This document shows positions 4,701 through 51,685 of a DNA stretch of 64,000 nt, one piece after another; within the stretch, counting starts at the first letter, position 1; every line of letters begins with the position of its first letter. Position numbers and translations under genes: made by a program. Under the pieces are notes generated by a model that searched no databases, had not been told where the DNA came from, and saw only the letters and a list, made by a program, of their open reading frames with translations. Origin of the DNA: Kiritimatiellia bacterium (GTDB taxonomy: Bacteria; Verrucomicrobiota; Kiritimatiellia; RFP12; UBA1067). The DNA is taken from NCBI GenBank assembly GCA_017454745.1, contig JAFTCL010000029.1, positions 23,968 to 87,967 on the forward strand, in the 5' to 3' direction.

Positions 4701-5827
4701 TCTGGGGCACTTGGACCGAGGAGACCGGCGGGAACCAGCGTACCCAGATGAATTTGGCCCGCAGAAAAGAGATGGCGTTGAAATGGGCCGGCGACAAGTA
4801 TGACCCCGAGAAGATCGGGAATCCATACGTTCCCGGCACGGAGCGTTTCGAGGCGCCGCCCGCAGGGGAGAAGTCGAATAAAGAGATTAAAGTCGAAGGC
4901 TGGCCGTTCGCCGCCACGCGGGCGAAAGAGATGCAGGGCGAAAATAAGCCTCGCACGTTAGACATCGGGAGCGGCGAGCAGTTGGAGTTCGCGTACATCC
5001 CCGCCGGCTCTTTCGCGATGGGTTCAAACGAACTTACGCCCGCCGAGCGCCCGGTGTGCAAAGCCACGATCGGCAAAGGATTCTGGATGGCGACGAAAGA
5101 GATCACACAGGGGCAGTTCCGTCTAATGGACCCGAATTTCGACAACGGAGTGTACGACAAACATTACAAAGACCAGGTGAATCGCGGTTACTACATGGGC
5201 GGTCGGGATCCGGATTTCGCCCAGCCCGGCAACGAGAAGTTCCCCGCCATCCGCGTGAGCTGGGACATGGCGCAGCAGTATTGCGCGTGGCTCTCGAAGC
5301 GGCTTGGCAGGAAGGTCCGCCTGCCCACCGAGGCCGAATGGGAGTGGGCCTGCCGCGCCGGAACGGACACCGAATTCAACTACGGTACAAAAGACGATGA
5401 CTTCTCCAAGCATGAGAACATGGCCGACTATATGTTTATCGAGCTGGCCGTGGTTGGGGTGAATCCGCAGCCGTTTGCCCGCGGCGATGATCCGCAGCCG
5501 AAAAATCTGCCGCCCGCGCTGTGGGATTACGAGTTGCGTGACCGCCGCTTCAACGACCATGTGCTTCATCTTGCGAAGGTTGGCAGCTACGCGCCCAACG
5601 TCTGGGGGCTTTACGATATGCACGGAAACGTAGCGGAGTGGACATCAAGCCCGTGGCGGTCTTACCCTTATGACGAGAAAACTGCTGACGGCGATCTTAA
5701 AGTAGTGCGCGGCGGATCGTGGTACCGGCGTCCGGTGGTTAGCTCAAGCGCCTGGCGTTGGCGCTATCCGTCATGGATGCGTCCGTTCGATGTTGGATTC
5801 CGCGTGGTCGTAGAGGATCTGCCATGA
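1757..5827 (+). CDS. Large secreted multi-domain protein: N-terminal F5/8 type C (discoidin) domain, central Planctomycete-cytochrome-like region with two CxxCH haem motifs, and a C-terminal formylglycine-generating-enzyme (SUMF1/FGE) family domain.
   Basis: 1356-aa ORF. Signal-peptide-like TAGCCLALGIIAVGNAVAA; an alternative start at MAKS (1799) is possible. Discoidin-like block AVDGNTNPDWGSE...WWEVDLGK. Motifs CTGCHENQ and CVGCHNPNSG. FGE hallmarks RVSWDMAQQYCAWL, LPTEAEWEWACRAG, NVWGLYDMHGNVAEWTSS and VVRGGSWY. Confidence 0.7.
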   Translation: MGRLWKGQGTVDDNMAKSVLNGFDVCNATLAKPGARHYRTLTAGCCLALGIIAVGNAVAAPENGRYIHVRLERIPAILSIAELEAFAGGDNVAKGRPAFQSTVGYGGVPARAVDGNTNPDWGSETITHTDEGRKNSPQWWEVDLGKNVEVSKIVLHNRKGYSHRSDGVQVLLLDERRRVVRGKTFADAGPLVLEMDLATEACAECAGEEIEDVTVPPATPAEIRAAYEKRATWVDSVAATAAKLRRYQTLLPLIDRLVEDFPDHAEEIVGNLGSGNFSKAELMKGAPKLASTSDESKLLALETLKWFNAAAMERAIRAYSAKYPSAYGDPAALLARLAEVKKSIEGAANEETRLNAAAALMKLQDDLFLRHPAVDFTHFLMVKRSRKSHSGLPHNWQGNSSVPLEGYLNAIVSLPIRRGTGERGRTIAASNYFLGDVDLDFDADKIAYSGGLDSEKRWCVLETRLDKPLVKTLKTPSGMNDIDCYDPCYLPDGRMLFVSTSGFHGVPCVTGSDYVGNTHLLEKDGGVKRLVFDQDNSWCPVVMNNGRVLYLRWEYTDSAHYFSRVMMTMNVDGSDQKAFYGSNSYWPNSLFYARPLPGSVTKFCGIASGHHGCAREGELVLFDVMKGRNETEGVIQRIPGWGKPVANKARDQLVNGSSPRFLHPYPLADELFLTSVHRGNGDPFIVAFADIYDNIVPVCVSADWNCLEPLPIKKRSRPQMSVDRRNDAVDTCTVYLQNVNFGAGLKGVPNNVAKKLRLFSYSYSPRNVGGHYNIGFEGPWDIRNILGEVELEKDGSAIFTVPANTPFAIQPLDSNGCKLQEMRSWFVGVPGEVISCTGCHENQNEAPPAANSIAARKRPQTPAPWYGPRRNYAFLREVQPVLDRKCVGCHNPNSGLKTRMGAPLPDFDGSKMEGHYSRAYVNLMPYVRRNGPEGDYHLLTPLEFHVSTSELYQRLEKGHHNVKLTAEEWSRIVTWMDLNVPFWGTWTEETGGNQRTQMNLARRKEMALKWAGDKYDPEKIGNPYVPGTERFEAPPAGEKSNKEIKVEGWPFAATRAKEMQGENKPRTLDIGSGEQLEFAYIPAGSFAMGSNELTPAERPVCKATIGKGFWMATKEITQGQFRLMDPNFDNGVYDKHYKDQVNRGYYMGGRDPDFAQPGNEKFPAIRVSWDMAQQYCAWLSKRLGRKVRLPTEAEWEWACRAGTDTEFNYGTKDDDFSKHENMADYMFIELAVVGVNPQPFARGDDPQPKNLPPALWDYELRDRRFNDHVLHLAKVGSYAPNVWGLYDMHGNVAEWTSSPWRSYPYDEKTADGDLKVVRGGSWYRRPVVSSSAWRWRYPSWMRPFDVGFRVVVEDLP

Positions 5828-39127: not shown

Positions 39128-42100
39128 TCACTTCACGGATTCGACGGCACCGAACCGGATGGTTACCGGGCCGATCAAACCGGAATCGATTAACGGGTCG
39201 CCTTTGATCCAGTGCTTCCAGGTTGAGAACGCGCGCCGATGCGTGGGCGACTGACTGCCATGTTTCGACCACTCCGGCAACTGTTTAATCCGGTATTTAT
39301 CACTGTTCGCGAATATCCATTCGCAGTCGTCGGGGTGCAATATCTCGTCGCCTAGGAAGCGGTTGGGCCAGAGATTGGTCACTTCCACCTCCAGATCGAA
39401 CGATTCAGCCCCTGGTTCAATCGCATCAGTGACATCAACGGCGAACGGCGGTTTCCAGAGCGTTTTGATGGCTTTGCCGTTTATCTTGACTACCGCGAAA
39501 TCCCTCACCTCGCCCAAATCCACCGCGATGCGCATTTTTACCGCGTTTCCTGGCAAGGTAATCCGTTTGGAATATGCCGCCGTGCCGGAGTAGAATTTGA
39601 TGCTGGCGTCGGTATGGCGGTTCCATCGGACAAGCTGCGGGAATTCGGTCGATTCCGGCGCGCCGCGCCCGCTGACGAATTTTACCTTCCATGGCCCGGA
39701 GACCTCCATCGGCGGGAGTGTCGCGATTTCTTTATGCAACGTTTTACCGTTGCTGTATTCGCAATCGGCATTGACCGGGTTCCATGCCACGAGTGCGCCG
39801 TTTTTCCATTCCCAATCCGGCGCGTAATCGTCCGCCGCGGTATCGGGCAACCGCAATACCATGTGTTCCATGAAATCTTCCGTGCGTTGAACACCGTTCA
39901 CTGCATAGGTGAGACGCAAAAACTTCACATCTAAAAGGGCGGGATCATCGCCGAACAGTTCGTTGCGCACGGCAAACTCAAGTCGTCCGTTTTTGATCAG
40001 ACCCCTCACGGTTTCGGTTACCTCCTTGGCACCCGCGGCGAAATCCGCACCCTCTGACCCGCCGGCGGATTTTTTGTATGCGCCGTAAACGGCTTTGATC
40101 ACCTCAACCCGTGCGGCGGACCGGTTAAGGTTGAGATTGATCCGTGTCGATTCGGGGAAATCTTCCGTATGGGTTTCGCCGTCGATTTTATAAGTTACGC
40201 GGCAAGTCTTGACTTTCCCGTACGCGGGATCGCCTTTAAAGGTCTCGTTGCCCGATGTTAAGGAGATTTTTCCTCGGTGCATTGCGTCGCGTAGAATCTT
40301 GGTAACATCCGCTGCCCCCGGCAGGAAAACTTTGTTTTCAAGGGCTCCGTAACGGGCTTCGATGATGCTGCCAGTGATTCGGGTAGCAGAGGCCGGTTCG
40401 TCCTTTGTCTTAACTGTTGCGCGGGTTAGGTGTGCCGTCCCAGTCTCGGTCCGACGGAAAACGACAAAAGTTGATCCTTTCGGCGGCAGATCGATGCTGA
40501 CAACGGTTCGACCGTTCTCGATGCGCCACACCGCCGCGTCGGTGCGCTCGCCGGTCTCGGCGTTCCACAGTTCCGGCACGCGACCGTTCTGCCGGAACGA
40601 CGCTTCAAATCGCAGCGGGTCTGCATTGCCCGCCGAAACGAAATAGATGTCGGCGTCAGCGCTGGCCCGGTGAATCCACGCCACCGGCGCGCCCAGCGAC
40701 TGATGGTCGAAGTCTGGCGTTAGCCCGATTTGTTTTAGCGCGTTGGCGGTCGTTCCGGAAATAACACCTTTTGCCCAGATCCGGTCGGCCAGCGCGGCAA
40801 CTTTCGTGTCAGCTTCCGGCCAACCGACCAAACCGGAATGGCGGTTGGGTTTTCTAATCGCGCAGACCTTCGCCCCTTGGTCGATCAATTCGCCAATGCG
40901 GATTAGCGCCGCCTCGCTCATGGTGGCGGTGTTCGGCAGTGCCAGCAGCGCGTACTCCGTTCCTCCGGGTACCGCCACCTTCCCGTTTTTGACGGTAAGG
41001 CGCATCAGGGCGCGGGTGGAGGCGATGTCCCAGTCGTAACCGGACGGCACGCCTACGCCCCACCACGAATTTTCATTCGGCACCTGCTCGCCGGTCCACT
41101 GCAGGACATCCGCTTGGAAGACACCCTGCTGCAACATCCATTGGCAACGCGCCTGGTAGGTTAGCCAAGTATCGACATGCCGCCACCAGGTTTGTTTGCG
41201 GTCAAAGTGCATTCCCCAACGGCCCATCGTCATGCCGGGCGCGAAATCGTCTCCCGGCCAAGGTTGGTGGGTGAAGCGGTGGTAGATGATGCGGTTTATG
41301 CCTTGGGCGAAGGCTTGGTCGCCGAGCCATTTGATTTTCCACGGGGTTTCGAGCCAGCGGCTGTGGTCTGGAAACGGGCTGCCGGTGAACGATTCGGTGC
41401 CGGCGTATTTGCGTCCCCAGACGTGCGCCAGACTGGCGGCGAGCTTGGCGTTGCCGGGATCTCCCATGTGGCTCCAGAACTCGCCCATCGGGATGTCCAC
41501 CGCCTCGCCGTAATCGAGATCGTCGCAGGTGCAGTTGCCGTAAGGCTCTATGGAAAGCTGAAGCCCGTGCCGGTGGCACAGCTCCGCCATCCGCCCGGAG
41601 TAGTTCTTCGCGAACAGTTCGCCGATAAGCCGGCGGAAGTCCTCCAGAAAACGTTCGCTCTCCTCGACCGATCCAACCACGCGGCCCGCGAAAACCGGCA
41701 GGTACTTCAGCAGCGAGTAGCCGAAACGGCGTTCGAACGCCTGGTCGAAACCTTGCGTCCAGTTTTGGCACTGCACCTCGTAGCTGTCCACCAGAATGTT
41801 GTTGAAACCGAGCGCGTTGTCGGTCGCAGAAGAAACGCCGAGATCGCGGCAGAGCCGCGAAACGTACTGCTCGAAATGGAAATCCAACGCCGGGGCGGAG
41901 AGCTTGTCCACCTCCAGACCGCGTCCGAAATCCGAGGCCGGGCCGTTGCACTGACCATTGCAGCGGTAGCCGATGCGCAGGATCGTCCACTCTCCGGCGG
42001 GTACGTTCCAGTTCAGCGAACCGTCCTTACGCATGGACTTGGTGAGGTCAATCTCTTTGGCCGCATCGACCAGTTGGTCGGCGGGATATGTCTTTTTTGA

Positions 42101-42703
42101 GGTGGGGTCGAAGAAATTTTGGTCGCGGTTGTGCATGAGACCGGCGATCTGGCGCCAGCGGAAGATTTTCTTTTCGAGGTTTTCGAGTTTCGCTCCCGCT
42201 TTGGGCGTGGGGTAGGCCAACACCGCAATGTCCTCGTAGAAGCCGTGGTCATCCTTGGTCCGCGGCAGTTTGCCGTCAAACACGGACGGCCCCTTAACCG
42301 CAGTTTCGGTGAAAACCACGTTTTTCATGGCATTTTCCGGTTTGTTCCACGGTCCGCCGTAACTTGACCAGCCGGAGCAGTTCGGGATACATATTTCAAG
42401 TCCGAGCCGTTTGGCCTCTTTCTGGGCGTGGCGGAAGAGGTCGAACCACTCGTCGGAGTTGAATTTGACCGGTCCGGGCGGCACGTTGCACCCGGCATCA
42501 AACATCTGCACGCCACCGATGCCGGCCTTGGCCAGCGCCTCGAAGTCGGCGGTGATGCCGGCCTTGGTGACGTTGCCGTTCATCATGTGGTACCAAGTGT
42601 GCGGTTTCGCCTCGTGCGGCGGGGTCGAAAATCCCTCTTCAAGCGTTTGCGCCGTTGCGCCGGCAGCCACCAATACCAATGTCATGGCAATCATTTTGTT
42701 CAT
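39128..42703 (-). CDS. Large secreted glycoside hydrolase, probably GH106-like alpha-L-rhamnosidase, with a C-terminal galactose-binding-like domain.
   Basis: Signal peptide MNKMIAMTLVLVAAGATAQT. N-terminal PHTWYHMMNGNVTKAGITADFEALAKAGIGGVQMFD block reminiscent of Glyco_hydro_106. C-terminal sugar-binding-like domain. The family assignment is tentative. Confidence 0.45.
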   Translation of the reverse strand: MNKMIAMTLVLVAAGATAQTLEEGFSTPPHEAKPHTWYHMMNGNVTKAGITADFEALAKAGIGGVQMFDAGCNVPPGPVKFNSDEWFDLFRHAQKEAKRLGLEICIPNCSGWSSYGGPWNKPENAMKNVVFTETAVKGPSVFDGKLPRTKDDHGFYEDIAVLAYPTPKAGAKLENLEKKIFRWRQIAGLMHNRDQNFFDPTSKKTYPADQLVDAAKEIDLTKSMRKDGSLNWNVPAGEWTILRIGYRCNGQCNGPASDFGRGLEVDKLSAPALDFHFEQYVSRLCRDLGVSSATDNALGFNNILVDSYEVQCQNWTQGFDQAFERRFGYSLLKYLPVFAGRVVGSVEESERFLEDFRRLIGELFAKNYSGRMAELCHRHGLQLSIEPYGNCTCDDLDYGEAVDIPMGEFWSHMGDPGNAKLAASLAHVWGRKYAGTESFTGSPFPDHSRWLETPWKIKWLGDQAFAQGINRIIYHRFTHQPWPGDDFAPGMTMGRWGMHFDRKQTWWRHVDTWLTYQARCQWMLQQGVFQADVLQWTGEQVPNENSWWGVGVPSGYDWDIASTRALMRLTVKNGKVAVPGGTEYALLALPNTATMSEAALIRIGELIDQGAKVCAIRKPNRHSGLVGWPEADTKVAALADRIWAKGVISGTTANALKQIGLTPDFDHQSLGAPVAWIHRASADADIYFVSAGNADPLRFEASFRQNGRVPELWNAETGERTDAAVWRIENGRTVVSIDLPPKGSTFVVFRRTETGTAHLTRATVKTKDEPASATRITGSIIEARYGALENKVFLPGAADVTKILRDAMHRGKISLTSGNETFKGDPAYGKVKTCRVTYKIDGETHTEDFPESTRINLNLNRSAARVEVIKAVYGAYKKSAGGSEGADFAAGAKEVTETVRGLIKNGRLEFAVRNELFGDDPALLDVKFLRLTYAVNGVQRTEDFMEHMVLRLPDTAADDYAPDWEWKNGALVAWNPVNADCEYSNGKTLHKEIATLPPMEVSGPWKVKFVSGRGAPESTEFPQLVRWNRHTDASIKFYSGTAAYSKRITLPGNAVKMRIAVDLGEVRDFAVVKINGKAIKTLWKPPFAVDVTDAIEPGAESFDLEVEVTNLWPNRFLGDEILHPDDCEWIFANSDKYRIKQLPEWSKHGSQSPTHRRAFSTWKHWIKGDPLIDSGLIGPVTIRFGAVESVK

Positions 42704-42739: not shown

Positions 42740-44179
42740 TCAGTACGATCCAAGTAGTTTCGCAAACGGAATTATTGCGTCGAAATACCCGTCGGCCTCC
42801 ACAATCGGGGCGAGATGCCCTTCATACACGAGTGCGGTGCGCACGGAGATACCGGCGCGGCGAGGAAGCCGTTTCGTTTTCTCCACCATTTCATCGATCA
42901 CTTCGCGTCCAATATCCCTGCGGCGCTTAATCTCGACAATACACATCGATCTTCTAGTCTGTATGAGCAGGTCGATCTGCACACCACTCTTGGAACCGTC
43001 ACGTGATGCCGCGCGTCTGTAAGGTGCGGCGGAGATAATCTGCGCATTGCCCATCCCAAGCATACTTACGAGGCCGCCGAGGTTCGCCAGCACTAAGTTC
43101 TCAAACTGAAGACCCATTGTGGAATCCCAGCCGTCGAGACTGTCGAGCGAACCGAAGGCGAAAGCATTGCGGTCGATGACGTCTTTCACCGGTTCAATGT
43201 ACTTGAGGTAGAACCGCGAGTAGTTGTCGTTAAGCCTGTAGCGCGACTCCCTGACATTCCTTCCGCTCTGCGGATTCACGCCGCCGTCGTTGACGACAAG
43301 CCCGCACTCTGCAAGTTGCTCTAGAGAATCGGAAATGCGCCCGCCTCGTTCCATCCCAATTTCTCGGGCGATTTCGCTTACGCTACGCGGTGCACCCTTG
43401 AGGCATCGGAGAACAGATGCCGTAAACTGCGGTTGCCGCGTTACGACATCCGAGAACATTTCATCGAAATCCTCCCGTAGCGGACTCTTTGGGAGGAAAC
43501 ACAGCCTTCGAATGTTCTCATTCGCCGATTCGGACGTATCAATCTCCTCAAGGTAGCGGGGAATTCCGCCCGTCACTGAAAGCACGTCGATAATTTCTCT
43601 AGGATCAAGCCTTGCCGCAGCCTTTCCCCAGAACTTTGCACATTCGCACACGGGAAGTTCGGGAACCACGATGTCGAGCGAACGCCTGCCGTAGAAACTC
43701 CCGTCCTCAAGTATGTTGTCCCTTATCCATGACGAAACACTTCCGCATAACACGAACACGAGCCTTGGATGCTTCTTGAAATGGTCATCCCATACTCCCT
43801 TCAGCGTACCGGCGAACAAGGGATCGTAATGCGCCATCCACGATATTTCGTCGAGAAGGACAACCGTCTTTTCGTTGTCGCGGATCTGCCCGTTCAGTCG
43901 AAGGAATGCGTTGAGCCAGTTGTTCGGAACGGAGGAGTCGCATCTGGTCTGGGCGGCAAGCTTCACCGCAAAGTTCTCAAGCTCCATGCTATTGTTTAAC
44001 TTCGCTCTAGGTTTTATCCCCTCGATCTTGATGAATCGTGCACCTGCTCTTTCGGCAAATTTCTCGATCAGGGTCGATTTGCCCACCCTTCGCCTTCCTC
44101 TGCAGGTGACGAACGAGGAAGTCCTCTTCCTAAAAAGGGAATCCAACCGTCCAATGAGTTCTTCGCGTCCAAAAAACAT
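42740..44179 (-). CDS. AAA-family ATP-binding protein of the DUF234/archaeal-ATPase type.
   Basis: FFGREELIGRLDS...VTCRGRRRVGKSTLIEKF Walker A. Walker B VVLLDEISW. C-terminal DUF234-like region. Local GC about 50% against about 62% in the flanks. Confidence 0.7.
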   Translation of the reverse strand: MFFGREELIGRLDSLFRKRTSSFVTCRGRRRVGKSTLIEKFAERAGARFIKIEGIKPRAKLNNSMELENFAVKLAAQTRCDSSVPNNWLNAFLRLNGQIRDNEKTVVLLDEISWMAHYDPLFAGTLKGVWDDHFKKHPRLVFVLCGSVSSWIRDNILEDGSFYGRRSLDIVVPELPVCECAKFWGKAAARLDPREIIDVLSVTGGIPRYLEEIDTSESANENIRRLCFLPKSPLREDFDEMFSDVVTRQPQFTASVLRCLKGAPRSVSEIAREIGMERGGRISDSLEQLAECGLVVNDGGVNPQSGRNVRESRYRLNDNYSRFYLKYIEPVKDVIDRNAFAFGSLDSLDGWDSTMGLQFENLVLANLGGLVSMLGMGNAQIISAAPYRRAASRDGSKSGVQIDLLIQTRRSMCIVEIKRRRDIGREVIDEMVEKTKRLPRRAGISVRTALVYEGHLAPIVEADGYFDAIIPFAKLLGSY

Positions 44180-44249
44180 TTCAAAACCTCATAAGTGATT
44201 CTTGGTTGAAAAATTTATCATAATCTTTCCGATTCTGTCAATAACACTT

Positions 44250-44339
44250 TGTCACATTATTTAATTTTTCTCAATAATGTGACAAAAATTACACTGCAAA
44301 AATCTGTCACATTATTGAGTTATACCTAATAATGTGACA
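44250..44339. promoter_or_regulatory. Two copies of a 12-bp inverted repeat with an 11-bp spacer (operator-like) in the AT-rich region upstream of the ATPase gene.
   Basis: TGTCACATTATT (44250-44261), 11 nt, AATAATGTGACA (44273-44284). Then TGTCACATTATT (44305-44316), 11 nt, AATAATGTGACA (44328-44339). Arms are perfect and identical in both copies. Confidence 0.6.
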
Positions 44340-44975
44340 TTTCTGATCTTACCCCGCCCACGATCGTTTACGGGAAGGTCCGTTTGTCCGTTCGCGTCAA
44401 GCAAGCCGAGAGGCGCCATTTCTGTGATACATCCCTCGCATATGCGCTCATAAAGCTCATTTCGGAGCCTGCACCCCAAAGGCGGCGGACGGGAGATCGG
44501 GTGTTTGAGTGCGAGTCACCATCGGGGAATGCAGTTTGGCGAACTTTCCTCTTGATGGAGGTTACTGGAATATGGTATATTTTAATTACCGTAATTGAGG
44601 GGAGTCTCAATCGCGGATGCTCTTTAACTTCGGTGGGTGCAGCAGATGGCCCACCACCGGGCCGAAACCTGTGTCGCGACGGTGTTTCGCTGTAGCGAAT
44701 AGGCCAAGGCCAAGAACCTCGGTTAACTTGCAATTGTAGAACGGACGGCTTGCCAGTTTCCGAATAGATTGTGATATGCCGGGGAGCCAGTGATCCCAAA
44801 AGGGCTCTGGAATCTTCTCCTTTGCTACGCAAGTGGCTAAGGAGGTAACGTACGCAACTGCGTAAAGTAACTTCGTAGAAAAGACCGCTAATCTTACGAT
44901 GGGGTGAAATACGGTGGTGCGTCGCGTGATGTTCACGCGGCGTGCTTTCCTATTCATGTTCCATCAAAGGCTTTT

Positions 44976-45029
44976 AGCGGCGCCTTCTACGAGACTTGAA
45001 TTTCGAGAGTGCGCCGCTCTTCTTTTTTT
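44976..45029 (+). terminator. Rho-independent terminator on the + strand.
   Basis: AGCGGCGC stem, loop, GCGCCGCT, followed by CTTCTTTTTTT. Confidence 0.65.
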
Positions 45030-45034
45030 GCTGA

Positions 45035-45067
45035 GGACACATTCTCAACACTGACGGAATTGTGTCC
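45035..45067. promoter_or_regulatory. 7-bp inverted repeat GGACACA-N19-TGTGTCC between the terminator and the first secreted-protein gene.
   Basis: Read directly from the sequence. About 50 nt upstream of the ATG at 45117; RBS-like AAGGGA at -12. Confidence 0.3.
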
Positions 45068-45116
45068 CCTACTTTTCCTGATGTGAACAAAACGCAAGGG
45101 GAAAGGGATTAAATAG

Positions 45117-46193
45117 ATGAGAAGGTTGTTGATCATGGCACTTGTTGTTGCATGTGCTGTTGGATACGCCATAGGTGCCGATGGCGAGGAGGACGCTCCT
45201 TCGGGAACGCAGAAGGTGATGCTTAAGATTGCGACCGTGGAAACGCCAGATACCCGTACCGCGAAGACATGGAATCCACCGGCCACACCGATGACCCTTC
45301 AGGAGCTACCACATACCGAGGCGGATATCGCCAATGCAACGCCGGAGGAAGCTAGGCAGATGGCAAAGGAGAACCGCGTCAAAAAACTGGCTAACCAGGG
45401 GATTCAGGCCGCCATCGCAACGGATGCCTATTTGAAGGCCCAACAGCACTTCGAGGGTGTAAGGAAAAAACTTGAGGGAACCGTGTTTGGCAAGCAGGTA
45501 ATTCTCGCTGTCGATAAGTTTGCCGGAATAGCCGGTGAATGTTTCGATCCTGATTGCATTGAGTTCTTCCACCGTATGGACAATGACGAGGGCGACAAGG
45601 AGCAGTTCTTACAGGATATGAAGAGTACGGATACGCTTTGCGCACCGTATTTCATAAAGCTCATCTTCGACAATCCTCGCCATGAATCTGGAAAAGTCGT
45701 TATGAACGGGCAGGAGATTAAGCGCTCGAAGACAACCATCACCATCACATATCAGGTACAGGCGCTTAATGGCCGTATGATCACGTCAGGCATGGTGAAG
45801 GAAGAGAAAATGACCAAGACATCCAATGCCGTACAGCGGTCAGGAACAGATGAAGGTGTTCTCATAGACACTATTGAGGAAGCGCTTCGAAAAGTGGCCA
45901 AGCGCATCAATGATCATTTCGTCGCGAAAGTTACGATTAAGGCCGTTTCGGCTGGCGGCAAGAAGGATGAGGATTTCGATGCCGAAGCCGCAACCGTTGA
46001 GCTTGACGGTGAATCTGCGGAGATTGACACCGAGATATCCATCATGAAAGGCAAGCACACCATCGTTATCGATCTTGATGAGTACAAGCAAAGAGGGTCC
46101 ACGTCTTTCAATATCAGAAAGTCTGGTCCGATCAAGATTGTTCTCAAAAAGAAGGAAGCTCCGCCGAAGAAGGAAGCCAAGGATGACGAGTAA
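45117..46193 (+). CDS. Secreted hypothetical protein (island gene A), distantly CsgG/LpoB-like.
   Basis: Signal peptide MRRLLIMALVVACAVGYAIGA. No known catalytic motif. GC about 50%. Confidence 0.55.
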   Translation: MRRLLIMALVVACAVGYAIGADGEEDAPSGTQKVMLKIATVETPDTRTAKTWNPPATPMTLQELPHTEADIANATPEEARQMAKENRVKKLANQGIQAAIATDAYLKAQQHFEGVRKKLEGTVFGKQVILAVDKFAGIAGECFDPDCIEFFHRMDNDEGDKEQFLQDMKSTDTLCAPYFIKLIFDNPRHESGKVVMNGQEIKRSKTTITITYQVQALNGRMITSGMVKEEKMTKTSNAVQRSGTDEGVLIDTIEEALRKVAKRINDHFVAKVTIKAVSAGGKKDEDFDAEAATVELDGESAEIDTEISIMKGKHTIVIDLDEYKQRGSTSFNIRKSGPIKIVLKKKEAPPKKEAKDDE

Positions 46194-46230
46194 TGTGTTT
46201 GTAAACTTCACACACCAGAAAGGATTGATC

Positions 46231-47217
46231 ATGAATAAGAGTATGTTTGCAGCAGTTGTCGTAGTCGCGTTGTCGTTTACGGGTTGTGTTTCGTACAAAG
46301 GTATCGCCGAGAAGGGAGACGATTTAGTGGATGAGGCCAACCAGCCTTATGCCAGCGCGGCGCAAACGGCATTTGAGGCGCGTGTGAAAGCGCCGCCGCG
46401 TCCGGTAGTAATCAATGAGGCTCCAGGTTTGAACCAGTTTCTTGCACCGACGGCTGCCGGGCATCCGCTTTGCCGGAATCTTGACGTTCGGAAGGAACTT
46501 GTATTGGCATTCAAGGGGCAACTTCGCGAAAAAGTCGCTGGAATCAAGGATTTCAAGCTTCTTGATGAGAATACGCCCATGGTGGAGGTCGTGGCCGAAG
46601 GAGATGCCGCTCCGCCCCAGAACTACTTGATGACTTACAACATCATCAGCATCGAATTGCGCGAAAACGCGGGAGGCAGTCTTGCTACTGGACTTGCAGG
46701 CGGAAAAGTTGCTGCCCAGAAATTCTGGGACGCGATTGCGAAGGTCGAGGTTCGCCTGTTCAAGCCAAACGGCACCGACTGTATTTTCTCATTTACTGGT
46801 GACGGCCTCTACAGAAAGATGGTTGACGAGAATAATCCATTGACGAAAGATTTGCTTCTTGGAGCAGTAAAAGATGCCGTCGATAAAGCGATGGCCGGGT
46901 ACGCGGAAAAGTTTGGCCCGCCAATCTTTGTTACTGACACCTGCCAGAACGGCCGGTTTGCCCGTCTTTCTGTTGGGTCAAAGTTCGGTGTTCAGGCTGC
47001 GCAGAAAGTGGAGTTCTTTTTCAATAAGGTGCGCAAGGGCGTGTCTGGCGAGGACGAGGTGGCTCGTCAGGTCGTGGGGTCTGGAGTTATCGGCGGAGGT
47101 AAGGCTCCTGTCGAGGATGACGGTGCTTGGGTGAAGGTTGATGACTATAATGCGGATAAGCGTACGGTACTCCGTTGGACATCCGCTCGAATCCTGCCTG
47201 TTGAGAAGAAGAAGTGA
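46231..47217 (+). CDS. Lipoprotein with a CsgG/LpoB-like fold (island gene B).
   Basis: Lipobox ALSFTGC. CsgG-family-like pattern LDVRKELVLAFKGQLREKVAGIKDFKLLDEN and NYLMTYNIISIELRE. RBS AGGA 8 nt upstream. Confidence 0.55.
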   Translation: MNKSMFAAVVVVALSFTGCVSYKGIAEKGDDLVDEANQPYASAAQTAFEARVKAPPRPVVINEAPGLNQFLAPTAAGHPLCRNLDVRKELVLAFKGQLREKVAGIKDFKLLDENTPMVEVVAEGDAAPPQNYLMTYNIISIELRENAGGSLATGLAGGKVAAQKFWDAIAKVEVRLFKPNGTDCIFSFTGDGLYRKMVDENNPLTKDLLLGAVKDAVDKAMAGYAEKFGPPIFVTDTCQNGRFARLSVGSKFGVQAAQKVEFFFNKVRKGVSGEDEVARQVVGSGVIGGGKAPVEDDGAWVKVDDYNADKRTVLRWTSARILPVEKKK

Positions 47218-47225
47218 GGTGCATT

Positions 47226-48173
47226 ATGAAGGTATTCAAATTAATGTTGTGTGTCGCCGCAGTTTCGGCGATGATTTTGCCTGTCCGGGCTGACGATGAC
47301 GAAGAGGGCGAAGATACGCGCCCATATGTCTCGATAAACAAGGAGGATGTTGTCAACAAAACTGACAACAAAACCGCCAATTTCAGGGCGCTGATAGATC
47401 GACTGAACAACGATCTCGTTGAGACGGGCCTTTATCGCGTCATGAGTATGGAGGATGCCATCAAGGCTGTCAAGAAAGCCGATCAGATGAGTGTTGTCGG
47501 GGATGATGGAGGCGGTGGAACGAAAATAACGACACCCGCGTTTTTCGTTGGCATGACTATTACGACATACGGCGTGACTACCGCGCGCAGTCAGAACGCG
47601 CTCACAAATGTGAAAATCGGTACGGAAGTTGCCAAGGTCGAGCTGATTCTCAAGGTTGTGGACGCTCGTTCTGCGGAAACGATCAAGTCAAAGAATATCG
47701 ATGCTTCGGCCTTTGGGCAACTTACCGGTGCGGCGGGCAATCTGCGCGAGCAGGTGCTCCAGAGTGCTGCAAAGAAGGCCTGCGAGAAGATTGTGTACGA
47801 ACTTATCAAGCTTACGCCGTTTGGCATCCTTGATGTTGAGAATGGAGTTGTAACGCTTGATGTACCCGGTTCGCTTAAGATTATGGGCAAACCGGTACAG
47901 ACAGGGACACAATTCGTTGTGTCGAAATTAGGAAAGGGTAAGAAGAGTAGGCGAACCGGCAAGGTGACACGCTCCGAAACGCAAGTTGCCGTGGTGAGCG
48001 TCACGTCTGTAGGAGAGGATTCATGCACGGCCAAGATCGTCAACGGTAAGATTGAGCCTATCGGAGATGATGAGGATACGCAGTATGATCCATACATCGT
48101 AAAAATCAATGAGGGTGCTGCCGGCACGCCTCCGCCGCCTCCGCCACCAGAAGATAACGGTGCGCCGTTCTAA
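47226..48173 (+). CDS. Secreted CsgG/LpoB-like protein with a poly-Pro C-terminal tail (island gene C).
   Basis: Signal peptide MKVFKLMLCVAAVSAMILPVRA. CsgG-like FRALIDRLNNDLVETGLYRVMSMEDAIKAVKK and KITTPAFFVGMTITTYGV. C-terminal PPPPPPPE. RBS GAGGTG. Confidence 0.55.
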   Translation: MKVFKLMLCVAAVSAMILPVRADDDEEGEDTRPYVSINKEDVVNKTDNKTANFRALIDRLNNDLVETGLYRVMSMEDAIKAVKKADQMSVVGDDGGGGTKITTPAFFVGMTITTYGVTTARSQNALTNVKIGTEVAKVELILKVVDARSAETIKSKNIDASAFGQLTGAAGNLREQVLQSAAKKACEKIVYELIKLTPFGILDVENGVVTLDVPGSLKIMGKPVQTGTQFVVSKLGKGKKSRRTGKVTRSETQVAVVSVTSVGEDSCTAKIVNGKIEPIGDDEDTQYDPYIVKINEGAAGTPPPPPPPEDNGAPF

Positions 48174-48203
48174 TGACGGATTCCGGACTGTTTGGAATCG
48201 GAC

Positions 48204-48232
48204 GGAGCTTCACCATTTGCCGGTGAAGCTCC
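48204..48232 (+). other. Perfect 11-bp stem hairpin between island genes C and D.
   Basis: GGAGCTTCACC, loop atttgcc, GGTGAAGCTCC. No T-run follows, so a classical terminator is uncertain. Confidence 0.35.
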
Positions 48233-48259
48233 GTTACTAGAAAGATGGAGAACTAATAT

Positions 48260-49045
48260 ATGAGAAGTGTGTGCTTTGTTTTCGCGGTGTTCGCGACCTT
48301 TTTAGTGGCTGTAGCCGAAACGCCGCTTGTTTCGGTCAATGTGATTGTTGCCACCAATACGGTGGGTGATGCCGATGCTGCGGCAAAGGCTGTGGCCGAA
48401 GTCGCAGAACGGACCGCACGGGCTGATGCGGCTCGGAAAAGAAGTTCCGTTGTGGTCAGTCAGTTGATTGCGGATATGAAACCTGTTCCGGGGCGGGTTT
48501 ACCTTCTCGGGCGTACGGAGGTCACTGCGGAGCAGTGGCATTCCGTCATGAAACCGGACGTTCCGTTTGTCGGCAAGGCTGATCTTCCGGTTTCTGGCGT
48601 AAGCTGGGACGATTGCCAGGATTTCATCAAGCGACTAAATGAACGTAGTGAGACAAGCGCTGAAGGATTGTCTTTCCGCCTTCCGACGGTCAAGGAATGG
48701 CGGCATGCGTGTCTGGCTGGCGCAAAGGGCAAATGGGGGCTTGTAACCGCAAAAACCGTGGGACAACTTGATTCCGTGGGATGGTATGCGGGAAACAGCG
48801 GAAGTCGAAAATCAGCCATCGCGCAGAAGACGCCTAATGTCTGGGGTTTCTATGATATGCACGGAAATGTTTTTGAATGGTGTTCCGATACGAGTCCGGA
48901 ATACGGCGGAGATTTCCGAATGCGAGTCGGTGGAAGTTTCAGATCACCATCCGAACAATGTGCGGCATCGTTTGCGAATAGTGCGAATAGGCAGTTTTCG
49001 CGATATGATGACCAGGGGGTTCGACTTATTTGTGAACGGCATTAA
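48260..49045 (+). CDS. Secreted formylglycine-generating-enzyme (SUMF1/FGE, DUF323) family protein (island gene D).
   Basis: Signal peptide. FGE hallmarks VSGVSWDDCQDF, LPTVKEWRHACLAG, NVWGFYDMHGNVFEWCSD and RVGGSF. Confidence 0.7.
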   Translation: MRSVCFVFAVFATFLVAVAETPLVSVNVIVATNTVGDADAAAKAVAEVAERTARADAARKRSSVVVSQLIADMKPVPGRVYLLGRTEVTAEQWHSVMKPDVPFVGKADLPVSGVSWDDCQDFIKRLNERSETSAEGLSFRLPTVKEWRHACLAGAKGKWGLVTAKTVGQLDSVGWYAGNSGSRKSAIAQKTPNVWGFYDMHGNVFEWCSDTSPEYGGDFRMRVGGSFRSPSEQCAASFANSANRQFSRYDDQGVRLICERH

Positions 49046-49084
49046 TTTTATGGAAGAGCCGCCAGCAAATTTCCAGTGCAACGC

Positions 49085-51685
49085 TCACTGCACTAGCCGA
49101 AGTTCGGCGAATTCCACTTCGGCACCGATTTCGCTTCCCGGATCGATACGGATCGAGTCAATCCGTCCGCGCCATGCCTTGTGCCCGGAGACCGGGAAAC
49201 GGTAGTCGTGCCATTTGCCGTCGGCTATGATTTCGCGGTGCATGGACGACTTTTCTGAGATTGGACCCGCGCTGCCACCCCAAAAGAGCTGAAGCGTCCC
49301 GGCGGCGTCGCGCGTACGCATCCGTACAATGACAGTGCCGAATTCCTTCGCCCGGATGCGTTGGGCCGAGACGGATACTGCAGGGTCGCGGCTGGTGGTG
49401 GAATAGGCGACACCCTCGCCGGTGGACCGTGCGCTGGAAAGGCCCATAAACGCATTCCAACCTTTCGGTTCGCCGTCCTTGCAGCTCCATGAGGTCTTCT
49501 TCTCTTGTGGCGGAGGTGGCGGGATGTCGTATGGCCCGAGGCCGACATCTTTCGGACCGTAGTTCTGCGGCCAGCCGGCGGCGGGTTTTTCACAGAAGGT
49601 TTCGCGCACCGCCTCGTAGAATCCGAAGCCGTGTTCGGAGTTCGGCTCGGCGTAGGATCCTTCGCCCCATTCGTTGAGCGGGGCGATGCAGAGGCGTTTT
49701 ACGCCAGTCTCGTCGGCGAACCGCTTTGCGGCCTGGCAGATGCTTCGGAAGTCGGCGGCGTTCTTGCCGTAGATTTCGCAGTGGTCGTTCCATGGGCGGT
49801 CGTCCCAGCCGGTGGATAGGTTGGGGAGGTACGGCAGGATGCCGGTCCGTTCAAGCGCGCGCCAATTTTCGACATTCGCTTCCGCAACCTGCGAGTAGGG
49901 GAATCTGCGGTACGTATTGGAGCGTCCGCCGTGGTCCATGAAATGGTAGATGCTCGTCATGTCGAAACCCAAATCGCGGATTCTGCTTACGACCTCCGGC
50001 GTGCAGACCGCCTCTGGCCACTTCATCGAGATGAACCAGATGCCCCTGAATCCGGCTGCGCGCGCCATCTCGCGCGAGACTTCGAGCAGCCGCCGGCATC
50101 CTCCGTTACCCGCCATGTCGCGTTCTATGTTCTCCGGCGACCATATCCACACCACGGGCATACCGTCAATCTGCAGGTATTCGGGCGTGTTGAAGTAGTT
50201 CTCGATCCAGAACTTGGTTACCGCGCGCTGGTCTGCCTCGGAGTGGGTGCCTGGGGCGTTGTGGTTAGCCCACATCATGGCCCATTTCATGCGGTTACGG
50301 TACTTCGCGCGGTAGAACGCCTTCACCCAATGGTCAAGGTGCTGGCTGCCGGCACTCCAGTACCAGTCCACATAGAGCGTACAGATGCCGTTTTCGACGA
50401 GCCACTTGATCTGCCAATCGACGATTTCGGGGTTTGCCTCGTCGTACCATCCCAAGACCGGCTTACGCTCCGGACAGGTGTTGCGCACGCGCTCCCAGCT
50501 TCTATAGGTGTTCCAGCCGGGGAAGTAGAGGGCGGCGATGTCGTATGTCGTGCGAACGGGCTTCGGTTCCGGCACGTAGCTTGCTTTTACGAGATCGAGT
50601 GATGGGGCGGCTTTTAGAACGACCTTTGTCGTGACGGGTGCAATGCCATCGGCCTTCAGTTCGACGGGAATCTCGTAGTTGCCGGGACGTACCGCCCGGA
50701 TCTCAACGGAGAATGTGGCTGTTTCGCCGTCCGCCACTGTGCGCGCCGCGCTGCGTCCGCCGCCGCTGATGCCGTCGGGTAATGCGGGGACGGATATTGA
50801 GGCGTTTTCGGCGGGCGCACCGCCGAGGTTCTCCACCACCAGCTCCACGGGTATAGGCTGCCCGGTGCGCGGAATAGCCTCGGCAGCTCGCGCGCTTTTT
50901 ACAATGAGGTCGGCGGGAATGTCACCGTCGTCACTGAACGTGCGGAAGTCTTTCGTTTCGAGCGGTTCGCCGGTTCGCGAATTCGTGAACTCCCACCATA
51001 CGATATTAACGTCTCTTCCGTTTTCGCCGGCCATATCGAGGGATATGGTGTGGGCGCGTCCGTCGCCGGGTACGGAGAACTTTCGGAAATGGCTGCCCGG
51101 AGCGTTGTCCGCGGCCCAGGCGAAGAGACCGGTCGCAGGAGTGTCGCCGTCAACGACGAATCTTACGCCCAGCGCGTTGGAAAGGGAGATGGGCTTCTGT
51201 GTAACTGCGGTTTCCACGCGCACTTCCGAGAGGGCGCATTCGCCGGCGTTGGCGGCGTTCGCCGGGAAATCGATGCGGACACAGCGGATGTCGCCTTCGC
51301 CATGCCAGAAGGGCCTCACGCGGTATTCGTGCCATTCTCCGTCGCCGATCCACTTGAAAGCCGCGCTGTGTTTTTGGTCCGGGCCTTTCATCTTGGTCGT
51401 TGTCCAGAAGATCTCGCCTTTGCCTTCCACGGGTGATTTGGCGCGGAACACGAGTTCTTGGGCGGGGGAGGCTGCGAAGGGTTTAACGTTGCCGCTGAAG
51501 AAGGAGTCGGGGCCGGCCGGTTTGCCGGTCAGGACTCCGTCTGCGAGCGCCGTTTCGCGCATCTGGTTCGCGCCGTGTTGCCAGGCATCGAGGTCGTTAC
51601 CACGCCAAACGGGTCCGCTGGCGGGTTCATCCGCTGCGATCGCAACGGTAACCGCCAGTGCAATAGCCGCAATCGTTTTAATCAT
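49085..51685 (-). CDS. Secreted glycoside hydrolase (GH99-like/WbsX-like catalytic domain) with N- and C-terminal beta-sandwich domains.
   Basis: Signal peptide MIKTIAAIALAVTVAIA. Central region with GWYDEANPEIVDWQIKW and PLNEWGEGSY (clan GH-A-like NEW motif). The family call is tentative. Confidence 0.45.
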   Translation of the reverse strand: MIKTIAAIALAVTVAIAADEPASGPVWRGNDLDAWQHGANQMRETALADGVLTGKPAGPDSFFSGNVKPFAASPAQELVFRAKSPVEGKGEIFWTTTKMKGPDQKHSAAFKWIGDGEWHEYRVRPFWHGEGDIRCVRIDFPANAANAGECALSEVRVETAVTQKPISLSNALGVRFVVDGDTPATGLFAWAADNAPGSHFRKFSVPGDGRAHTISLDMAGENGRDVNIVWWEFTNSRTGEPLETKDFRTFSDDGDIPADLIVKSARAAEAIPRTGQPIPVELVVENLGGAPAENASISVPALPDGISGGGRSAARTVADGETATFSVEIRAVRPGNYEIPVELKADGIAPVTTKVVLKAAPSLDLVKASYVPEPKPVRTTYDIAALYFPGWNTYRSWERVRNTCPERKPVLGWYDEANPEIVDWQIKWLVENGICTLYVDWYWSAGSQHLDHWVKAFYRAKYRNRMKWAMMWANHNAPGTHSEADQRAVTKFWIENYFNTPEYLQIDGMPVVWIWSPENIERDMAGNGGCRRLLEVSREMARAAGFRGIWFISMKWPEAVCTPEVVSRIRDLGFDMTSIYHFMDHGGRSNTYRRFPYSQVAEANVENWRALERTGILPYLPNLSTGWDDRPWNDHCEIYGKNAADFRSICQAAKRFADETGVKRLCIAPLNEWGEGSYAEPNSEHGFGFYEAVRETFCEKPAAGWPQNYGPKDVGLGPYDIPPPPPQEKKTSWSCKDGEPKGWNAFMGLSSARSTGEGVAYSTTSRDPAVSVSAQRIRAKEFGTVIVRMRTRDAAGTLQLFWGGSAGPISEKSSMHREIIADGKWHDYRFPVSGHKAWRGRIDSIRIDPGSEIGAEVEFAELRLVQ

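Follow-up and report, generated by a model that had tools for sequence, protein, structure and literature searches.

The stretch of DNA analyzed here (referred to below as the window; 64,000 nucleotides [nt] of contig JAFTCL010000029.1 from a bacterium of the class Kiritimatiellia) contains, between positions 42740 and 49050, a block of five genes that stands out by its low guanine-plus-cytosine (GC) content. On its left side, a gene for a stand-alone P-loop ATPase is transcribed leftwards. On its right side, three adjacent genes for exported proteins, here called A, B, and C, and a gene for a secreted protein with an FGE-sulfatase domain are transcribed rightwards, and the gap between the ATPase gene and gene A holds a conserved structured RNA. 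A preliminary description, made from the sequence of the window, had presented the entire block as one module. The analysis described below points instead to two units that happen to be neighbors, and it identifies the RNA as a leader that recurs upstream of A-B-C operons and other envelope genes.

The gap between the ATPase gene and gene A spans 937 nt, and its part from 44340 to 45116 contains no convincing open reading frame (ORF). The leader RNA placed in this gap (44588 to 45030, plus strand; ~440 nt) consists of a variable 5' domain with several conserved blocks, followed by a conserved 3' core. Its candidate promoter, which would also serve the operon, is found at 44552 to 44581 on the plus strand and combines TTGATG and TATATT hexamers at an 18-nt spacing with an extended -10 element (TGGTATATT); the 5' end of the leader is put near 44588 because of the position of this promoter. 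The promoter aligns with TTG...TGGTATAAT promoters (17- to 18-nt spacing) in 10 other loci, which are all located at an equal distance from a conserved GATCTTTGACAT box. A consensus scan detected no other plus-strand promoter-like site between this promoter and gene A. In most copies of the leader, the region upstream of the core starts with the promoter, continues with the GATCTTTGACAT box and a covarying hairpin, and ends with a variable insert; covariation between loci is seen in the 5' blocks and their hairpins.

The core itself (44843 to 45038, plus strand; 205 bits with the covariance model R1, described below) includes four helices on the plus strand: P0 (44851-44855 paired with 44860-44864), P1 (44874-44880 and 44885-44891 paired with 44974-44980 and 44985-44991), P2 (44898-44903 paired with 44960-44965), and P3 (44917-44929 paired with 44933-44945). 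These are followed, at 45005 to 45029 on the same strand and 87 nt before gene A, by an intrinsic-terminator-like hairpin, GAGAGTG CGC CGCTCTT (45005-45021), and CTTTTTTT. Thus, the earlier claim of some 650 nt that lack a convincing ORF and end in a terminator was correct, and the RNA locus suspected there does exist. RNAalifold predicts, in addition, an alternative 13-bp helix between 45005-45017 and 44937-44949, i.e., the 3' strand of P3, and this helix is paired at every variant position in all sequences. The interval from the terminator to gene A holds a second hairpin (GGACACA...TGTGTCC), which is followed by a T-rich stretch (45033-45068). Other copies also have a hairpin at this place; in the group of loci L102, L099, and L118 (loci from other contigs are cited by such L numbers where they need to be told apart), this hairpin shares bases with both the ribosome-binding site and the start codon. 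A 116-amino-acid (aa) ORF on the minus strand (44607-44957), which the annotation of the source contig lists as a gene, is antisense to the covarying RNA, lies inside it, and is probably spurious.

A BLASTN search with the 937-nt gap revealed that positions 44848-45030 of the window are 85% identical at the nucleotide level to part of the sequence preceding gene A in L011, with additional matches in L019 and L014. The A protein of L011 is only 50% identical to that of the window, so the core is more conserved than the protein encoded behind it. Scanning metagenome contigs for a pattern and then applying nhmmer brought the set to 15 copies; the metagenome pattern, GYGGCGYRCTTTCYTATT, proved too degenerate, as only 11 of the 120 returned loci were real. 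The covariance model R1 was built on the structure read from the alignment (P0, P1, P2, P3, and the terminator) and scores the 15 copies at 115 to 207 bits. It also recognizes further strong copies upstream of gene A in L143/144 and L146, as well as diverged ones in front of gene A in L007/L013/L021 (33 bits) and L008. The L015 contig carries two leader copies, one (573-754) before the gene for a 463-aa lipoprotein and a partial one (5650-5697) before A-B-C, with a tyrosine integrase gene and one that is replication-like between them. No P0 box was detected when viral contigs were scanned.

The proposed structure is supported by covariation. In the 15-sequence alignment, 90.5% of the cells are paired, compared with 31 to 50% in slid controls, and 14 of the 42 pairs are changed on both sides, compared with 8.3 ± 1.3 in shuffles, none of which (0 of 500) reached 14. 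P2 is paired in 100% of cases, with compensatory changes in five of its six pairs, and in the diverged copies, P0, P1, and P3 form again but are made of other bases. Both the MAFFT and the covariance model alignments misplace P1a by one column in 8 sequences, which leads to an underestimate of the covariation in helix 2; RNAalifold, run on the MAFFT alignment, missed P1 to P3 and gave the alternative fold. Taken as a single sequence, the core of the window folds into P0-P3 and the terminator at minimum free energy (z = -4.5), which gives a rod-like structure with large invariant internal loops. For the 445-nt leader, RNAfold gives -175 kcal/mol (z = -4.8).

In Rfam 15, no match was found at the gathering score in the window and none at an E value of ≤10 in the region 44350-45150, and six other leader copies had no match at an E value of ≤1. 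Some microRNA-like Rfam matches to the palindromes next to the ATPase gene (see below) are spurious. A 6S-RNA-like reading, suggested by the rod shape, was rejected in view of the lack of a match to 6S RNA in Rfam, the presence of several copies per contig, and the invariable location just upstream of an ORF. A search of the literature on Kiritimatiellia together with riboswitches, noncoding RNA, or CsgG returned nothing relevant. We conclude that the leader is a well-supported structured RNA outside Rfam and represents a new family, probably of the attenuator kind.

The genomic contexts of the leader offer some insight into its role. Every strong copy precedes a same-strand ORF at a distance of ~45 to 110 nt, in ~15 distinct contexts. 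Six of these contexts have A-B-C, and approximately nine have other genes, mostly coding for lipoproteins or secreted proteins, some of them with zinc ribbons. In L014, the core is present without the 5' domain, directly behind a promoter. The leader-linked operon in L093 codes for a true Pfam CsgG protein (55 bits) and for proteins ending in Phe. Because the copies are followed by a same-strand ORF, no promoter for gene A is seen after the terminator, and an alternative helix is predicted, the leader is likely to act in cis, with a terminator that would be bypassed under certain conditions. The main rival to this view is an independent small RNA (sRNA) with leaky termination, which would end at the terminator and act in trans or titrate a protein, its position next to a gene being incidental. 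The conserved RNA of the window has a strong promoter of its own and a good terminator, is rod-like with large invariant internal loops, and occurs in several copies, two of them on a single contig (L015), all of which would suit an sRNA. However, the uniform strand and the short distance (within ~110 nt) to the downstream ORF in all these contexts, the absence of a visible gene A promoter downstream of the terminator, the weak U runs in many copies, and the L014 core, which forms an ordinary 5' untranslated region, argue against it, and we consider an sRNA unlikely.

The genes following the leader in the window form a conserved set. To place them in context, we used ~20 loci encoding homologues of protein C, which were collected by looking up exact proteins, by scanning GTDB genomes, and by additional look-ups, and compared all seven window proteins to these loci by tblastn. 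The window itself belongs to a 174-kb metagenome scaffold (ENA ERZ28653690 scaffold_235), and the homologues come from gut and rumen metagenome-assembled genomes (MAGs) labeled Kiritimatiellia, Kiritimatiellae, and sometimes Lentisphaeria or Verrucomicrobia. Two contigs with A-B-C of the Kiritimatiellia type (L012 and L016) are binned in MAGs named Barnesiella intestinihominis and Anaerovoracaceae, probably by mis-binning. All ~20 loci keep A, B, and C side by side and in this order. The first gene of L018-L020 has diverged too far to be detected by tblastn; in L019 and L020, it codes for a signal-peptide protein of 439 and 356 aa, respectively. The genes around this triad differ from genome to genome and include mfd/cutC, glutamine synthetase, transposase, MlaD/TP_methylase, racemase, and others; no flagellar families are found among the neighbors in the loci examined. 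The FGE gene follows A-B-C in every locus of the closer clade, where C is at least 67% identical (the window, L005, L010, L143/144, L145, and L146, which are six different neighborhoods), and is absent from the clade at ~45 to 50% identity. Further evidence comes from gene fusions. The proteins P0202 and P0306, as well as the product of the L146 gene 7583-9583, join an A-like N-terminal part with a C-like C-terminal part behind a lipoprotein signal, which independently argues for a joint function of A and C; the same arrangement was noted in P0190, and the L146 fusion gene is located directly after that locus's own A-B-C-x-FGE cluster. These data support the view that A-B-C is a conserved envelope gene set, to which the FGE-fold gene is linked in one clade. 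An undescribed envelope module, as anticipated in the preliminary description, is indeed present, although it consists of A-B-C(-FGE) and the leader RNA, without the ATPase.

The gene order of a secreted protein, a lipoprotein, and another secreted protein reported earlier was borne out. Gene A (45117 to 46193, plus strand) codes for a secreted protein of 358 aa with a predicted helical hairpin, a CsgG/LptE-type alpha/beta domain, and a C-terminal PEGA/transthyretin-like beta-sandwich; longer homologues of A carry PEGA or CarboxypepD_reg domains. Gene B (46228 to 47217, plus strand) codes for a lipoprotein of 329 aa with a predicted FlgT-like architecture, namely, a CsgG/LptE-type domain and a C-terminal beta-barrel. 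Gene C (47226 to 48173, plus strand) codes for a secreted protein of 315 aa that appears to combine a CsgG/LpoB-type domain and a beta-barrel domain and ends in a Pro-rich linker with an invariant C-terminal Pro-Phe. The signal peptides of A and C end in AIGA|DGEE and VRA|DDDEE, respectively, which are signal-peptidase-I type sites followed by an acidic run; in the lipobox of B, G19 and C20 are invariant among 39 homologues. C-terminal ends of the GGF, TAF, or DAF type are also seen in several secreted proteins of other leader-linked operons (L093 and L036), and an end with Phe may be a shared docking or sorting signal.

The relationships of these proteins are visible only at the level of folds and superfamilies. 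Nothing in Pfam, NCBIfam, or PADLOC scored above threshold with A, B, or C: there was no match to CsgG (PF03783; gathering score, 20.8 bits) at an E value of ≤0.1, the cutoff for LpoB (PF13036) was not reached, and the Pfam domains of FlgT (FlgT_N/M/C) gave no match. Sequence profiles of A and B had no matches in the PDB. AlphaFold models built from 39-sequence alignments reached pLDDT (predicted local distance difference test) values of 75 for A and 84 for B. Foldseek searches with the B model returned FlgT first (3w1e and 8z5n; E = 8e-12, probability 1.0, 295 to 303 columns) and CsgG second (2e-5), and CsgG is among the top fold matches of both models. The template modeling (TM) score of B against FlgT is ~0.3, indicating that the domain orientations differ. 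For C, the family as a whole is informative: 15 of its 34 members show weak matches to PF03783 (best E value, 6.5e-6), and 7 of 34 show matches to LpoB. A search of 1.84 billion representatives with the C-family profile yielded 25 clusters at an E value of ≤1e-30 and 79 clusters at ≤1e-10. Among ten weaker matches (E values from 5e-33 to 6e-9), seven are bona fide CsgG proteins, and some have LpoB, FlgT_M, and FlgT_C signals. These models support a CsgG/LptE/LpoB-type fold for A and B, and profile similarity supports the assignment of C to the CsgG superfamily; by family thresholds, A, B, and C all fall outside Pfam CsgG and LpoB. The three proteins are new, lineage-restricted variants of the FlgT/CsgG fold group. 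Accordingly, the earlier CsgG/LpoB-like label holds at the fold or superfamily level and fails at the level of Pfam membership, while the suggested paralogy of A, B, and C found no support in sequence, as neither BLASTP nor hhalign detected any pairwise similarity and their likeness is confined to the fold.

The same data bear on the possibility that A-B-C is a CsgG-type outer-membrane secretion channel, in which B or C would form the pore and the other proteins would be periplasmic or surface accessories. By analogy to CsgG/E/F, HfaB, and PelC/PelB, such a channel might export an amyloid, a polysaccharide, or another polymer. The CsgG matches of A and B and the gradation of the C family into Pfam CsgG are in line with this idea, and so are two Gly/Ala-rich, low-confidence loops in B (residues 112-131 and 148-164) at the places where CsgG has its membrane hairpins. 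L144 also has an additional CsgG gene after the FGE gene; this gene (L144:10192-11358), in a close relative of the operon, codes for a Pfam CsgG-family protein of 388 aa. However, no gene for a substrate, such as a curlin-like repeat protein or a polysaccharide synthase, is conserved beside the operon, C is not a lipoprotein, full-length B fits FlgT far better than CsgG (see the E values above), and all three proteins stay below the Pfam CsgG threshold. An export channel therefore seems doubtful to us.

The last gene of the operon in this clade (48260 to 49045, plus strand) codes for a secreted protein of 261 aa with an FGE-sulfatase (C-type-lectin-like) domain, as previously described: residues 87-257 match PF03781 at 83.1 bits (cutoff, 23.3). 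Between gene C and this gene, there is a perfect 13-bp hairpin with a 7-nt loop and no U run (48202 to 48234, plus strand). The best match among proteins of solved structure is TvpA (2y3c; E = 1.5e-17), followed by PorK/GldK (1e-7). The solved relatives (TvpA, PorK, CotH, and PvdO) do not include any catalytic FGE. The match to the GldK model TIGR03525 is 40.5 bits, against an equivalog cutoff of 350, and the protein has no lipobox. Hence, the proposed likeness to the FGE-type components of envelope machinery stands as far as a resemblance to PorK/GldK is concerned, but the closest solved relative is a different protein and the GldK cutoff is missed. Catalytic FGEs carry two catalytic cysteines in the C-terminal segment; here, this segment (...GGSFRSPSEQCAASF...), as read directly, has a single Cys in its GGSF...R stretch. 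TvpA is the variable protein of a diversity-generating retroelement (DGR) of Treponema denticola, which raises the question of whether the FGE-fold protein could be the variable target of such an element. However, the 64-kb window contains no template-repeat-like copy of the gene or of any part of it, four independent samples have the protein in 100% identical form, and its differences from the L005 orthologue are scattered and not confined to Asn-type codons, all of which makes a DGR target extremely improbable. The protein is best described as a secreted lectin-fold protein that is a clade-specific fourth subunit or accessory. Elsewhere in the window, a 40-nt segment (5592-5631) within a 1356-aa ORF (1757-5827) is 82% identical to part of the FGE gene, which suggests a second FGE-type domain in that ORF.

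The left unit of the block has quite different properties. The ATPase (479 aa; 42740 to 44179, minus strand) has the Walker A and Walker B motifs GRRRVGKST and VVLLDE, as read directly, and matches ATPase_2 (PF01637) at 42.7 bits (cutoff, 33.2). Residues 254-298 show weak winged-helix matches (HTH_5/ArsR-like) and residues 382-453 show weak matches to Hjc/YraN, suggestive of a nuclease-like C-terminal part. The DUF234/Arch-ATPase label given previously holds for ATPase_2, but the DUF234 part (PF03008) is not confirmed, with no match at an E value of ≤0.1 in the Pfam scan. The protein also matches the PADLOC model PDC-S27 (PDLC04984; E = 1e-73), extending over 418 residues (2-419).

A candidate ATPase promoter on the minus strand (44212 to 44241; TTGACA and TAAATT separated by 18 nt, with an upstream TG; 10 of 12 consensus matches) is located ~30 nt upstream of the start codon at 44179. 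Next to it are two palindromes. Palindrome 1 (44248 to 44286) consists of TTTGTCACATTATT and AATAATGTGACAAA around an 11-nt spacer, with 14-nt arms that are 100% complementary. Palindrome 2 (44305 to 44339), 55 bp from palindrome 1, consists of TGTCACATTATT and AATAATGTGACA, also around 11 nt. The 12-mer TGTCACATTATT occurs exactly four times, in alternating orientation (44250+, 44273-, 44305+, and 44328-), where the expected count is 0.1 and none of 100 shuffles had four copies; it was found neither in the rest of the window nor in 141 other loci. This confirms the two perfect inverted repeats that had been noticed before. Each arm of palindrome 1 can also be read as a -35-like or -10-like hexamer on both strands. 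The ATPase unit would thus be transcribed leftwards from its own promoter, and the two identical palindromes beside it could be operators for the winged-helix domain of the ATPase (autoregulation) or symmetric promoter elements. The remaining ~210 nt up to the leader promoter (44340-44550) contain no ORF and no repeat and have no match in other loci.

The block is flanked by two genes on the minus strand that were described earlier as glycoside hydrolase genes, a GH106 gene on the left (39128-42703; PF17132, E = 2e-181) and a WbsX/GH99-like gene on the right (49085-51685; Glyco_tran_WbsX, PF14307, E = 5e-18, with a weak GH99 match). The reported dip in GC content is real: 500-nt windows have a GC content of 0.45 to 0.55 across 43750-49000, compared with ~0.58 to 0.62 in the flanks, and the value for 42740-49050 is 0.512, compared with 0.574 for the entire window. 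The GC content at third codon positions (GC3) is 0.617, 0.579, 0.561, 0.566, and 0.496 in the five genes of the block, compared with a mean of 0.719 (standard deviation, 0.034; minimum, 0.616) in the 24 other large genes. However, A-B-C has a lower GC content than its flanks in most other genomes too, for example, in L005 (0.57 versus 0.68/0.63), L007 (0.62 versus 0.70), and L014 (0.57 versus 0.65/0.63), and for this reason, low GC content is a trait of the A-B-C operon. One possible cause is the codon usage of envelope genes with high expression; another is that the operon has been relocated repeatedly within the class. The Rfam search found no tRNA, transfer-messenger RNA, or any other Rfam RNA in the whole window, a repeat search of the window found no convincing direct repeats at the edges of the block, and the Pfam search found no integrase among its genes. 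Of the inferred horizontal acquisition, the atypical composition remains, and the transfer as a single unit finds no support. The ATPase is the sole element of the block with a clear accessory distribution: the gene is absent beside A-B-C in the ~20 other loci and present only in the window's own contig.

This distribution bears on the two readings of the block. The preliminary description proposed a horizontally acquired set of five genes, whose periplasmic or defence-like secreted proteins would be governed by the ATPase via the twin palindromes. This proposal could draw on the low GC3 common to all five genes, on the ATPase with its winged helix and its match to the model of a defence candidate, and on the position of the palindromes between the two divergent units. 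However, both the ATPase and the 12-mer are missing from every other A-B-C locus, and a conserved promoter and leader that belong to the operon itself lie 210 nt beyond the palindromes, which adjoin the ATPase promoter. Further, A, B, C, and the FGE protein have no match among the PADLOC models, and the GC content of A-B-C is low in other genomes as well. We therefore abandon the five-gene module, its control by the ATPase, and its defence-like character, and regard this scheme as very improbable. In our opinion, the block is a chance juxtaposition of an ATPase unit and an A-B-C(-FGE) operon with its leader RNA, and we assign a probability of roughly 0.6 to this reading as a whole. It may serve as a reminder that a compositional "island" can be a chance neighborhood of unrelated units. 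On inspection of the sequences, the genes just upstream of leader copies in L103, L099, L107, and L118 are often of the toxin-antitoxin or defence type and include a nucleotidyltransferase with HEPN, PIN-like proteins, and a RhuM-like protein; in the window, this place is taken by the PDC-S27 ATPase. The region before the leader promoter may be a preferred landing site for accessory genes.

Based on these observations, the following scheme can be proposed. Transcription of the right unit would start at the 44552-44581 promoter and first yield the structured leader of ~440 nt, and only those transcripts that read through the terminator would encode A, B, C, and the FGE-fold protein. The leader would be a conditional attenuator that responds, through its invariant loops, to a ligand, a protein, or an RNA, and it could coordinate the A-B-C operon with the other envelope-protein operons that carry the same leader. 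By analogy to FlgT/FlgP, TsaP, PelC, CsgG, and PorK/PorN, the four exported proteins might assemble into an oligomeric, membrane-anchored periplasmic scaffold, such as a ring or a disk, with the lectin-fold protein as a possible peripheral or ligand-binding subunit. The H ring of Vibrio is made of 26 FlgT subunits, and the Phe-terminated tail of the lipoprotein FlgP docks into FlgT (bioRxiv 10.64898/2025.12.04.692373); the Pro-rich tail of C with its terminal Phe may likewise dock into a partner. In its full form, the proposal is that the 196-nt core and the 5' domain represent a novel class of regulatory RNA, either a riboswitch or an attenuator responding to a protein, that controls a regulon of envelope operons in gut and rumen Kiritimatiellia. 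Part of this regulon would be an undescribed A-B-C-FGE machine of the FlgT/CsgG fold, which would form a ring or disk in the periplasm of bacteria that are not known to be flagellated. We put this forward tentatively, at somewhat less than even odds.

Several points weigh against this scheme. The A-B-C loci L005, L145, L006, L016, L017, L018, L020, and L022 have no detectable copy of the leader. The 5' end of the leader, its termination, and the read-through are deduced from sequence features. The changes in the alternative helix are all one-sided, so that a switch is not demonstrated, and the U run stands behind both conformations. With respect to the left unit, the palindromes are tied to the ATPase only by position. 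Finally, in none of the contexts do the genes beside the operon encode a partner machine, be it a flagellum or a secretin.

Kiritimatiellia are abundant and mostly uncultured polysaccharide degraders of guts and rumens, and to our knowledge, their cell envelope is essentially unstudied. In other bacteria, the fold of A-B-C is used for rings around flagella, pili, and secretion pores; hence, the operon, a small and lineage-restricted set of proteins, points to an unknown envelope structure. The leader RNA links several envelope operons, and its covariance model, promoter, and terminator provide a handle for finding the regulon and the signal that it senses.

Comparison with known systems shows both similarities and differences. 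The leader resembles attenuators and riboswitches in being a sense-strand 5' leader with a covarying core of several helices, invariant internal loops, an intrinsic terminator, and a predicted, mutually exclusive alternative pairing, and in recurring before several functionally related operons; it differs from the known ones in having no Rfam match, an unusual length (~440 nt), and a variable 5' domain. The ATPase resembles PDC-S27, a single-gene defence candidate that was predicted from genomic embedding and is enriched in Archaea; most candidates of this origin still await validation (PMC12988326). A role of the ATPase in defence, deduced from the hidden Markov model match, is likewise a prediction. 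Among the protein systems, one related to the operon is the Vibrio flagellar H ring, formed by FlgT with FlgP and FlgO: the model of B shares the three-domain fold of FlgT (Foldseek E = 8e-12). However, A, B, and C do not match the Pfam FlgT families, the TM score is low (~0.3), no flagellar genes are nearby, and the PEGA-like domain of A is absent from FlgT. The alpha/beta fold of A and B is shared with CsgG/HfaB (PF03783), LptE, PelC, and LpoB, although A, B, and C miss the Pfam threshold, have extra C-terminal domains, and are not accompanied by curli, Pel, or Lpt partner genes. The beta-barrel domains of B and C resemble those of the TsaP/FlgT_C type, as in TsaP, which forms a ring at the type IV pilus secretin, but there is no LysM domain. 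In the type IX secretion system (T9SS), PorK/GldK and PorN form rings, and the FGE-fold protein matches PorK (1e-7) and GldK (40.5 bits); unlike these, it is not a lipoprotein, has only 261 aa, scores far below the cutoff of 350, and has no secretin or T9SS genes adjacent to it.

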